From NCBI RefSeq assembly GCF_003334765.1, contig NZ_QOWT01000076.1: a DNA stretch of 1,956 nt. The stretch is one strand, 5' to 3'. This DNA comes from Escherichia coli. GTDB lineage: Bacteria; Pseudomonadota; Gammaproteobacteria; Enterobacterales; Enterobacteriaceae. The position numbers and the translations under genes were made by a program. The notes below the pieces were generated by a model, which was not told the origin of the DNA, did not search any database, and saw only the letters and a list, made by a program, of their open reading frames with translations. Of the stretch, positions 1 to 1,956 are shown piece after piece; position 1 is the first letter of the stretch; every line of letters starts with the position of its first letter.

Positions 1-533
1 TTCTGGCAACCCATCGCATCAGTTGTGATGATTTTTCCTTTAATATCCAGCATGTTAAGAAGTTCAGGGATAGCTGTGATCTCATTGGATTTCTTATCCG
101 TCTTGATCTGCCCGATGACCAGACTGTGCATTGTTGAGAACGCACTAATGACATGAATCGCTCCCCTGCGGCGACTCTTGTCATAAGAGTGCCGGAGCGT
201 TTTTCCATCAATTGCAATGACGTCTTTATCATTTGATGAATGGCAATCACGCATCCAGTTAATAAAGCACTCGTGAAATTTTGCAGGACTGATACAGGAT
301 ACAACTCTGGCAATAGTATCGTGAACAGGAATACCATTTTCAAAATCACCATATTGCTTCAAGAAATCGAGATGTGTTTCCCCGAAATCCTCTATATCTT
401 CCCAACTTTCTGCACCAGAAATAACGGCAAAAATAGTCAATAGTAGGATGCCTGACAATTTATGCTCTACTTTCCAGGCTTATCTGTAATCGGGAATAAT
501 AGAAATATGTTCCATCAATTTTTTAAGTTCCAT
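1..533 (-). pseudogene. ISAs1-family (H-repeat-associated type) transposase, N-terminal ~177 codons, 3'-partial (runs off the window start); interrupted by an in-frame TAA at codon 18
   Basis: Hand translation of the minus strand from the ATG at 531-533 gives MELKKLMEHISIIPDYR, then TAA (plus 480-482), then in the same frame [159 protein letters not shown], open to position 3. The pattern IxDxR...K.EHxLxxILLL..xAVISGA.xWxxIExFG ... GIPxHDTxxRV is the DDE_Tnp_1-associated N-terminal domain of ISAs1-family transposases. No minus-strand stop occurs in this frame between 479 and 1. Confidence 0.85.
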
Positions 534-758: not shown

Positions 759-1328
759 TTATTTCTCTTCACTACGAATTAGTTCATGCTGTATCTTTAT
801 TAAACATTCGTAAGACTCATTTTTGTTCGGGAGATGTGCTGTCATTCGAGCATAAGTTGGTTTCTCATCTTTAAAATATTTTACCATGATTGAATTATCA
901 AGGACTGCCAACAACTGAACTGGATCACTGCTCTTTTTTTGATAGATACCCGCTCTTATATAACTTCTAAACCGATCGCCGAGAAACGCCGTTTTTTCTG
1001 CTGTATTTATCAACTCCTGCAACGTTCCTTTGATGGCATGATTTTCATTAAGGCGTAGTGACCCGACGCGAATTAAGAGTCTCGCCCCGCTTGGTGTGAA
1101 TTTATTATTTTTACATGTACCCAGTTCTGTTTGCCAATAATACTCACCGATGTCCTCATTCTGATACCATCTCCACATGGCTTTATTATTTAAGACAGGA
1201 AACGCGGAAAAAATAGTACCCTTAGCGAAAATAGTAAAACAATCATGATCTTTAGCTTGTATTTCGCAATCAGCTATAACACCAAAACTAACAAATATCA
1301 TCAGCAAAAAGAACAAAACTCTTTTCAT
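759..1328 (-). CDS. Putative cognate immunity protein for the Rhs CT toxin; Sec-exported periplasmic protein (189 aa precursor)
   Basis: Track ORF 759..1328 (-). Its ATG (1326-1328) overlaps the toxin TGA (1325-1327) as ATGA. N-terminus [19 protein letters not shown]|DCEIQ has a basic n-region, a hydrophobic h-region and a V-I-A signal peptidase I site. An SD-like AGAGGAA lies 6 nt upstream. The gene is AT-rich (hand-sampled stretches about 28-43% GC). Position immediately 3' of a polymorphic toxin CT is the canonical immunity position. Confidence 0.75.
1272..1328 (-). other. Predicted Sec signal peptide of the immunity protein (19 aa, cleavage after VIA)
   Basis: [19 protein letters not shown] followed by DCEIQ. 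There is no lipobox: the residue before Cys is Asp, not G/A/S, so signal peptidase II processing is unlikely. Confidence 0.65.
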
Positions 1329-1956
1329 TTTCTTATTCCTCTCGATGTTCTCTGTTTCATCTTAGCTAAAATTTCACCCAAATCATCTATCCCTGCTGTT
1401 GCTGGCCCATCGGGTTTATTAATGTCTGGGAATAAATAGGGTTCTGCACAAGTATATCCTGGTGGTAATTGAGTTGTTGGCCAATTTGTCTGTGGCAGGT
1501 AATCACTTGCTGTCTTTGTATCCATCCCTGGATACTGGGAATCATCCTGTGGCGTACAAGTCAGATTTGGTTTTACCCACTTCCTGCAATACAGTGTGTA
1601 GTCGTAAGGGCTTAATGCTCTGAAGAATGTTTTGAAAACATTAGGCGCACTACTGGCCTGGTCAATAGGATATGGCAGTCTTAATTGTTTCGCTATGTCC
1701 GGCAATTTACTTGGATCGGGCGTAGGCGGTTTGTTGGGTCTCGCTCCATATCCGCCATTATTTAAGTGTCCATATTTTGATGCCAGTCCCATTGAATCTA
1801 TATACTGAACCGGATTCAGCGGATACTGATAAAAATTCCATCCCCCCTTCAGCCCAATCGGATCCTGAGTGATATACCTCCCCTGCAGCGGGTCATAATA
1901 GCGGTGGCGGTTGTAATACAGGCCGGACTCCTCATCATACTGCTGCCCCGGCAGGC
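1325..1956 (-). CDS. Rhs family (YD-repeat) protein, C-terminal fragment: end of the conserved core plus variable CT toxin domain; 5'-partial, continues beyond the window end
   Basis: The minus-strand frame of the 155-aa track ORF stays open from its Met (1790-1792) up to position 1954 with no stop. Hand translation of 1793-1954 gives [54 protein letters not shown], followed by [14 protein letters not shown]... This matches the hallmark end of the Rhs repeat-associated core ([12 protein letters not shown]...QDPIGL.GG.N.YQY..NP....D..GL). The Met at 1792 is therefore internal, not the true start. Stop TGA at 1325-1327. Confidence 0.9.
1328..1783 (-). other. Variable Rhs C-terminal toxin domain (152 aa) of unknown activity
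   Basis: Sequence after the GL junction: [152 protein letters not shown]. It sits exactly where Rhs CT toxins sit and is followed by a coupled small ORF. I see no HExxH, HxxxH or other canonical nuclease/peptidase motif, and the single His precedes all three Cys. Confidence 0.7.
1335..1341 (-). promoter_or_regulatory. Ribosome-binding site for the immunity gene
   Basis: Minus-strand AGAGGAA (plus-strand ttcctct at 1335-1341), 6 nt upstream of the ATG at 1328, located inside the 3' end of the toxin coding sequence. Confidence 0.5.
1784..1813 (-). other. Rhs core/CT junction motif (PxxxxDPxGL-type; here [10 protein letters not shown]), the predicted autoproteolytic demarcation site
   Basis: Ten codons, P(1811-1813) V Q Y I D S M G L(1784-1786), with the same spacing as the PxxxxDPxGL motif that ends Rhs cores, except that Ser replaces the Pro after Asp. 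Confidence 0.75.
1814..1956 (-). other. Conserved Rhs core terminal region (partial), relatively GC-rich
   Basis: Encodes ...[43 protein letters not shown]. Hand-counted GC for 1793-1956 is about 52% (86/164), clearly higher than the downstream CT and immunity sequence. Confidence 0.85.

Follow-up and report, generated by a model that had tools for sequence, protein, structure and literature searches.

The DSMGL sequence at the core/CT junction of an Escherichia coli Rhs polymorphic toxin is best explained as a variant of the second DPxG[LWF] autoproteolysis box in which Ser is naturally tolerated, probably with full retention of function, a reading to which we assign a probability of about 85% on the basis of the sequence and of analogy with characterized effectors. 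As a minority form of the Rhs self-cleavage site that has been documented before, DSMGL is ordinary. The Ser itself will be unsurprising to a specialist, and its significance lies mainly in annotation practice. The junction was analyzed within a 1,956-nt stretch of E. coli DNA, termed the window, the features of which are listed in Table 1.

TABLE 1 Features of the 1,956-nt window surrounding the DSMGL junction
Feature	Position	Strand	Comment
ISAs1-family (H-repeat) transposase pseudogene, 5′ part	1..533	minus	Internal stop; runs off the window start; annotation mapped from 10424-11560 of a matching genome locus to window position 533 downwards
ybfC, 189 aa	759..1328	minus	Presumed cognate immunity gene, by position only; annotated 'protein YbfC' in all matching genomes
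Rhs ORF, 3′ end	1325..1956	minus	Last 57 core codons, 152-codon CT and stop codon (1325-1327); runs off the window end
CT tip, 152 aa (ASKYGHL...RGIRK)	1328..1783	minus	16.9 kDa, pI 9.1 (predicted released fragment)
Second box DSMGL in PxxxxDxxGL context (10 residues)	1784..1813	minus	Predicted cleavage after Leu (1784-1786)
Ser codon TCA	1793..1795	minus	One transition from Pro CCA
First aspartyl box DPIGL	1850..1864	minus	Asp equivalent to RhsA D1324 and TseI D1407; 22 residues upstream of the second Asp

Architecture of the junction

Translation of the minus strand from 1784 to 1813 gave exactly the 10-residue junction peptide given in an initial annotation of the window, encoded by CCG GTT CAG TAT ATA GAT TCA ATG GGA CTG with the Asp codon at positions 1796 to 1798. 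The plus strand of the same interval reads QSH*IYILNR, a nonsense translation which places the feature on the minus strand; no strand had been given in the initial annotation. The NCBIfam profile RHS_core matched residues 1 to 57 of the translation (E = 7.7e-32; profile positions 1205 to 1261 of 1261), and TIGR03696 (Rhs_assc_core) matched residues 2 to 57 with a score of 72.7 bits against a cut-off of 32.5 (profile positions 20 to 76 of 76). Both matches stopped exactly at the Leu of DSMGL, residue 57 of the translation, indicating that this is a true Rhs core end rather than a chance string and confirming the earlier assignment of a core/CT junction to this site. With the profile for the full-length Rhs element core protein, NF041261 (cut-off, 2000 bits), the score was 110 bits; of the core, only the final 57 codons lie within the window.

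A two-box architecture was observed, consisting of DPIGL, a spacer of 17 residues and DSMGL, with an Asp-to-Asp distance of 22. Both catalytic-Asp boxes were present at canonical spacing, and the sole departure from the short consensus was the Ser after the second Asp, as had been pointed out previously; a strict DPxGL pattern, with Pro at this position, did not match. The computed mass of the predicted released fragment, 16.9 kDa, agreed with the earlier estimate of ∼17 kDa. GC content fell from 59 to 68% (about 60%) in the core to 37 to 47% across the CT and ybfC.

As TCA differs from the Pro codon CCA by a single base, a sequencing or assembly error was considered and excluded. The window is identical in many independent complete genomes, and the same codon occurs across complete genomes produced by many laboratories on different platforms. 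DSMGL is fixed in thousands of E. coli genomes and was present in all of the protein clusters with thousands of members (more than 2,000), every full-length copy examined had GAT TCA, and the same pair of codons was found in Phytobacter. These population data refute an error, which is left with a vanishingly small probability, and the suggestion in the initial annotation that resequencing might reveal a Pro codon was contradicted by the presence of GAT TCA throughout independent genomes.

The published cleavage motif and a Ser-type junction in a functional effector

An extended RHS cleavage motif, DP(I/L)GxxGGxxxxxYxxxxxxxxD(P/S)xG(L/W), described as 'most commonly I, P and L', was reported by Lewis et al. 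(2019; PMC6833914) and restated in the Tse15 structure paper (PMC11461821). The 27-residue stretch spanning both boxes of the E. coli protein matches DP(I/L)GxxGGx5Yx8D(P/S)xG(L/W) at every position. The Ser of the published motif stems from Acinetobacter baumannii group-16 effectors, including AB307-0294_16, which is Tde16, formerly Rhs2 (supplementary alignment, PMC6833914), and the pre-cleavage region of Tde16 ends ...PITWIDSKGL as read from the OCR'd version of that alignment (PMC6833914). Tde16 is a confirmed T6SS-delivered DNase effector with activity against E. coli prey (PMC6833914, PMC11461821). Its clade and toxin domains were detected in supernatants from which cage peptides were essentially absent, in two secretome experiments, the peptide maps of which are indirect evidence of cleavage. 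Tde16 is, therefore, functional with DSKGL, indicating that a Ser-type junction works in a real effector.

In both proteins the second catalytic Asp is followed directly by Ser and a DPIGL box lies upstream, and D(P/S)xG(L/W) covers both. They differ in that Tde16 belongs to an unrelated Rhs clade, is VgrG16 dependent and carries an AHH nuclease CT, and in that the function of Tde16 and the separation of its toxin from the cage were shown by experiment while the function of the E. coli protein is judged by sequence. The initial annotation had suggested that the substitution could alter cleavage efficiency; by analogy, the activity of Tde16, with its toxin secreted apart from the cage, makes a disabling effect of the Ser unlikely.

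The initial annotation had recognized the motif as an intramolecular aspartyl autoproteolysis site, in accordance with work on Photorhabdus laumondii Rhs1 (PMC8636562), Pseudomonas protegens RhsA (PMC8765631) and Aeromonas dhakensis TseI (PMC7170923). For Rhs1, D1338N prevents cleavage, and A1343 is the first toxin residue (PMC8636562); the catalytic residues of RhsA are D1324 and D1346, with cleavage after W1350 (PMC8765631), and those of TseI are D1407 and D1429 (PMC7170923). These three proteins share with the E. coli protein the two boxes, the 22-residue Asp-to-Asp distance and cleavage (predicted for the latter) four residues past the second Asp, and Rhs1 also has the same Ala at P1′; they differ in having Pro after the second Asp and in their N-terminal regions and toxins. 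Mutagenesis in all three concerned the Asps only (PMC8636562, PMC8765631, PMC7170923), and no mutation of the Pro after the second Asp was found in the literature searched. Searches for literal DSMGL-type motif strings returned only unrelated papers. Among Rhs structures with inspected alignments (three distinct proteins, five printed), Pro was present in all, including 7q97 (DPLGW), 8uy4 (DPKGL) and 8h8a (DPTG); 8h8b, which is the same protein as 8h8a, reads APTGF. The remark 'except RhsA in EDL933' by Pei et al. (2020) was discarded as a lead, as it refers to Z5014, a different locus, and DSMGL is absent from their dataset.

Frequency of Ser after the second Asp

The residue following the second Asp was tabulated in three samples. 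Sample 1 comprised matches to the core end and CT and was mostly enterobacterial and biased by the query. The 109 junctions obtained had P in 87, S in 16, A in 4 and Q in 2. Ser occurred in at least three unrelated enterobacterial CT families of this sample, and sisters of some of these families carried Pro, an example being the pair KFHVNGDPSDFNQA after DSLGL versus KFEVDGDPTDFNQA after DPLGL. A name look-up for the other Ser-type junctions yielded generic annotations only (E. coli, Salmonella, Hafnia alvei and metagenomes), none of which named a characterized effector.

Sample 2 was generated with a profile built from eight diverse Rhs core ends and stopping before the motif, such that no residue was favored at the position of interest. 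A database of 1.84 billion representatives gave 183,991 matches, and 141 junctions were extracted by regular expression from the best 150, 12 sequences having no recognizable motif; these best 150 do not amount to a random sample of the ∼184,000. Among these junctions, P was present in 126 (89%), S in 6, A and T in 2 each and L, R, E, I and Y in one each. When counted by distinct CT type within the same best 150 of 183,991 matches, P accounted for 109 of 123 and S for 5 of 123, so that Ser, at about 4% of junction types, ranks first among the residues other than Pro. The spacer between the boxes was 17 residues in 103 and 18 residues in 36 of these 141 junctions.

The initial annotation had termed the motif non-canonical, which was an overstatement given this frequency and the published D(P/S)xG(L/W) form (PMC6833914). 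It had also proposed that Ser would be unremarkable if an alignment of a broad set of Rhs core termini showed it to be common and compatible with cleavage; Ser emerged from the sampled junctions as the leading alternative to Pro, and the variant is essentially unremarkable on these terms. Pro after the second Asp does not define the Rhs autoprotease plug, since the published motif permits P or S and 11% of the sampled junctions lack Pro. Tools or in-silico cleavage scripts relying on strict DPxGL will lose about 1/9 of Rhs junctions, and a safer pattern is D[PSA..]xG[LWF] combined with an upstream DPxG box at 17 to 18 residues.

Sample 3 was restricted to the YbfO-type CT family and contained P in 10, S in 6 and A in 3, with the residue switching among close relatives. 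DS was found in E. coli, Salmonella enterica and Phytobacter, DP in S. salamae at 75% CT identity and DA in a metagenomic relative at 70%. This switching among P, S and A inside one CT family spoke against the possibility, raised in the initial annotation, that Ser marks a distinct Rhs subfamily.

The strong preference for Pro in the best 150 of 183,991 matches lends some weight to an alternative in which the change from Pro to Ser slows autoproteolysis or makes it conditional, providing a tuned or attenuated tip release specific to the YbfO-type CT family. The presence of Pro in all of the structures with inspected alignments, the tolerance by O157:H7 of an intact toxin gene next to a frameshifted ybfC (see below) and the persistence of Ser despite a divergence (dS) of about 0.75 within the enterobacterial branch of this family point in the same direction. 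However, close relatives carry Pro or Ala without any other systematic change, such that the residue looks neutral rather than adaptive, and Tde16 kills prey efficiently with DSKGL, its toxin leaving the cage. Tuning of release is, on balance, unlikely.

One protein of 574 aa (P0149) exhibited two successive junction boxes, DEFGL and DIWGL, each behind a DPIGL box. This arrangement suggests a tandem or nested duplication of the core end, with no Pro after the Asp in either box.

Identity of the locus

A search of the genome collection found the window to be 100% identical to many complete E. coli chromosomes, and at least 80% of it was present in 3,032 of 5,426 E. coli genomes with annotations of RHS protein, ybfC and ISAs1 transposase. 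The gene order in strain ML35 is kdpA, kdpF, ybfA, rhsC, an IS5 insertion, ybfB, a truncated RHS pseudogene ('missing N-terminus'), ybfC, an ISAs1 pseudogene and ybfD. The locus is the K-12 rhsC locus, and the truncated Rhs gene is the orphan ybfO/rhsO. K-12 ybfO (rhsO)/ybfC is essentially the same DNA, with 99.5% identity across the core end, junction and CT, a shared downstream ybfC and a shared gene order (rhsC, ybfB, truncated Rhs, ybfC and ISAs1 remnants); there was no difference in the motif. In genomes identical over the window, the Rhs gene was annotated either as an RHS pseudogene or as an RHS element core protein, and matches of 100% identity were of both kinds, orphans and full-length copies.

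The whole window had 36,263 matching places across the E. coli collection, the median genome having 8. Downstream of ybfC, the ISAs1 (H-repeat) transposase gene is interrupted by an internal stop and has further ISAs1 fragments (ybfD) behind it, and the insertion between rhsC and ybfB in ML35 is an IS5-like ISKpn26 element (window, 1 to 533; locus L001, 6550 to 7530).

Orphan and full-length copies of the module

Homologous-protein searches gave only short proteins (up to about 360 aa), and full-length carriers were obtained from the E. coli genome collection. The query for this search joined 1,500 nt of core to the junction and CT, so that 80% coverage required more than rhsC or the orphan by itself. 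Coverage was sharply bimodal. In 1,074 of 5,426 genomes, among them ETEC H10407 (ETEC_RS03880, WP_000015214.1) and O157:H7, coverage was 95 to 100% and the annotations were 'RHS element core protein' and ybfC. Most of the remaining records matched at 76%, corresponding to the orphan form, K-12 included, and amounting to about two thirds of carriers. Thus, the fused state is present in about 20% of E. coli genomes, with most other carriers of the module being in the orphan state. Translation of four full-length copies gave in each case 1,399 aa without stops and the same junction peptide with codons GAT TCA, while in ML35 and K-12-type genomes the gene was an orphan, annotated as a pseudogene 'missing N-terminus' behind rhsC-ybfB.

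Ungapped comparison of the DNA of rhsC and the orphan showed about 97% identity over about 1,045 nt, with a break from position −12 relative to the Asp codon; most of the 54 mismatches in the 1,083 nt compared were past the break. The DxxGL codons of the two genes differ at both synonymous and non-synonymous sites. The homology stops four codons (12 nt) short of the Asp, and the motif is therefore kept by function within a variable cassette and not by homology. The full-length DSMGL protein of HSP425 was identical to ML35 RhsC at 1231 of 1242 pre-junction residues, and ML35 RhsC ends in PISNIDPLGL. One core lineage can, therefore, carry either residue depending on the attached tip, indicating that the Ser belongs to the CT module; the same RhsC core bearing DPLGL in ML35 and DSMGL in HSP425 is a further observation at odds with a distinct Rhs subfamily.

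The full-length copies were mosaics at the amino acid level, being rhsC-like far upstream and orphan-like nearer to the junction; in natural main/orphan recombinants, the crossovers lie hundreds of codons upstream of the motif. Read from these sequences, crossovers occur anywhere in the upstream homology tract and not at the motif. The initial annotation had placed the precise recombination boundary for CT swapping at the motif, and neither the position of these crossovers nor the end of rhsC/orphan homology upstream of the Asp agrees with this.

Orphan rhs-CT/rhsI modules are known as a class (Poole 2011; Koskiniemi 2014), to which the ML35 and K-12-type copies belong as core fragments that lack a start codon, lie behind a main rhs gene and share a high-identity core tract with it. 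By analogy, the mosaics fit homologous recombination between main gene and orphan as demonstrated in Salmonella Typhimurium LT2 (PMC3967940). Compared with the LT2 orphan rhs-CT/rhsI (STM0292), the E. coli locus exhibits both the orphan and a natural fused state. The homology tract is 522 bp at 95% identity in LT2 versus about 1,045 bp at about 97% in E. coli, and the CT families differ. Recombination was demonstrated experimentally in LT2 (PMC3967940), whereas in E. coli it is deduced from natural variants. The locus offers a clean natural example of the orphan-to-main model of Rhs recombination.

In strain 21AH057, the source of one of the four translated copies, the DSMGL tip differs by three substitutions and is carried by a full-length Rhs gene beside nikR, a second chromosomal locus (locus L005, 763 to 5528), indicating that the cassette moves between rhs loci. 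At this second locus the Rhs gene is followed by a co-diverged YbfC homologue (annotated 'hypothetical protein') and then by genes for NTF2-fold and DUF6258 proteins resembling stranded immunity genes.

Two further rearranged forms were observed in E. coli assemblies. In P0002 (13 member sequences), the first ∼104 residues of RhsC are joined straight to a stretch with DSMGL and the tip, the entire shell being deleted, and in P0005 the N-terminus of an ISAs1 transposase is joined to a stretch ending in DSMGL and the tip. These forms point to frequent illegitimate rearrangement at the locus.

The homologous DS-type tip of Phytobacter ursingii is also an orphan (locus L007, 950 to 4638 and 6001 to 7119). 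The main Rhs gene of this strain is split in two (947 and 293 aa, with a DUF4329 tip) and is followed by an Imm-NTF2-2 gene, ahead of the orphan. The 3′ end of the orphan is frameshifted and the gene downstream is broken into ORFs of 32 and 142 aa, so that this copy appears to be decaying.

Selection on the CT tip

The dN/dS ratio of the CT was 0.25 in comparison with Phytobacter (dS, 0.75), 0.37 in comparison with the DA-type metagenomic homologue and 0.10 between the two E. coli loci. Intact full-length genes and a low dN/dS of the CT indicate that the module is maintained by selection, which is purifying in the case of the CT; for K-12-type copies, which are silent orphans, any selection would be indirect.

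These data bear on the alternative that the Ser disables cleavage and that the module is a decaying relic in a silent orphan. Such decay would be in keeping with the K-12-type ORF, which is without an N-terminus and annotated as a pseudogene, with the ISAs1 pseudogene and IS insertions around the orphan and with the frameshift at the 3′ end of the Phytobacter copy and the broken state of the gene behind it. However, about 1,074 genomes keep an intact 1,399-aa DSMGL ORF without stops, the dN/dS of the CT is well below 1 and ybfC has been kept in more than 3,000 genomes. Furthermore, unrelated CT families and an effector known to function also have Ser at this position, and both catalytic Asps are intact. 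We consider a disabled relic to be very improbable.

The YbfO-type tip family is small, with 44 matches from E. coli, Salmonella, Phytobacter, Delftia and metagenomes. Alignment of the family revealed an invariant SPxDYT motif, three invariant Cys residues and a conserved basic tail at the C-terminus, with RK or RR as the last residues. Neither Pfam nor NCBIfam had a family matching the CT. An AlphaFold2 model of the CT derived from a 12-sequence alignment was of low confidence (pLDDT, 58.7), and a Foldseek search of the PDB with this model gave no match (best E = 2). This putative toxin could be worth characterizing.

Proposed mechanism

If DSMGL is a functional variant of the second box, folding of the Rhs shell would be followed by autoproteolysis in a C-terminal plug using both Asps, D1221 and D1243 of the 1,399-aa protein. 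The chain would be cut after L1247, freeing a 152-aa YbfO-type tip starting at A1248, and the cotranslated downstream YbfC would presumably neutralize the freed tip; toxicity of the tip and immunity conferred by YbfC are both inferred. The residue after the second Asp is non-catalytic and variable, with Pro the commonest and Ser next. Ser is here inherited with the AT-rich CT/immunity cassette and not with the conserved core. In K-12-type strains this cassette is a silent orphan behind rhsC-ybfB, and in about a fifth of E. coli genomes it is joined to a full-length core, as expected from recombination in the ∼1 kb of shared core.

ybfC and the O157:H7 strains

The ATG of ybfC overlaps the stop codon of the Rhs gene by 4 nt as ATGA (1325 to 1328), an overlap typical of translationally coupled toxin-immunity pairs. 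ybfC co-occurs with the CT at two loci, where the sequences co-vary, and is retained in more than 3,000 E. coli genomes. No Pfam or NCBIfam family matched YbfC. The N-terminus of YbfC resembles a signal peptide, which hints at a periplasmic site of action.

An intact Rhs toxin gene next to a broken ybfC, as found in O157:H7, is unexpected. This pairing would be easier to tolerate if the toxin were inactive or not deployed, and it counts against our main explanation. It could also be accounted for if the choice of Pro, Ser or Ala behind the second Asp were a rate-setting dial for toxin release and the YbfO-type tip used Ser to delay or condition autoproteolysis, a proposal that we regard as distinctly unlikely. 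Under this proposal, the signal peptide of YbfC would point to a possible periplasmic action of the tip.

In three independent O157 assemblies (Xuzhou21, FWSEC0004 and AR-0428), the full-length DSMGL Rhs gene is intact and encodes the same protein, WP_000015262.1. The adjacent ybfC, which corresponds to window positions 759 to 1328, is annotated as 'frameshifted' in all three (L004, 4959 to 5529; L010, 2859 to 3429; L011, 2871 to 3441). For Xuzhou21 the ybfC translation is MKRVLFFFADDIC*, as would result from insertion of a single T into a run of T near codon 8. Codon 10 of the original frame is an ATG, still in frame, from which a YbfC protein without the signal-peptide start might be produced.
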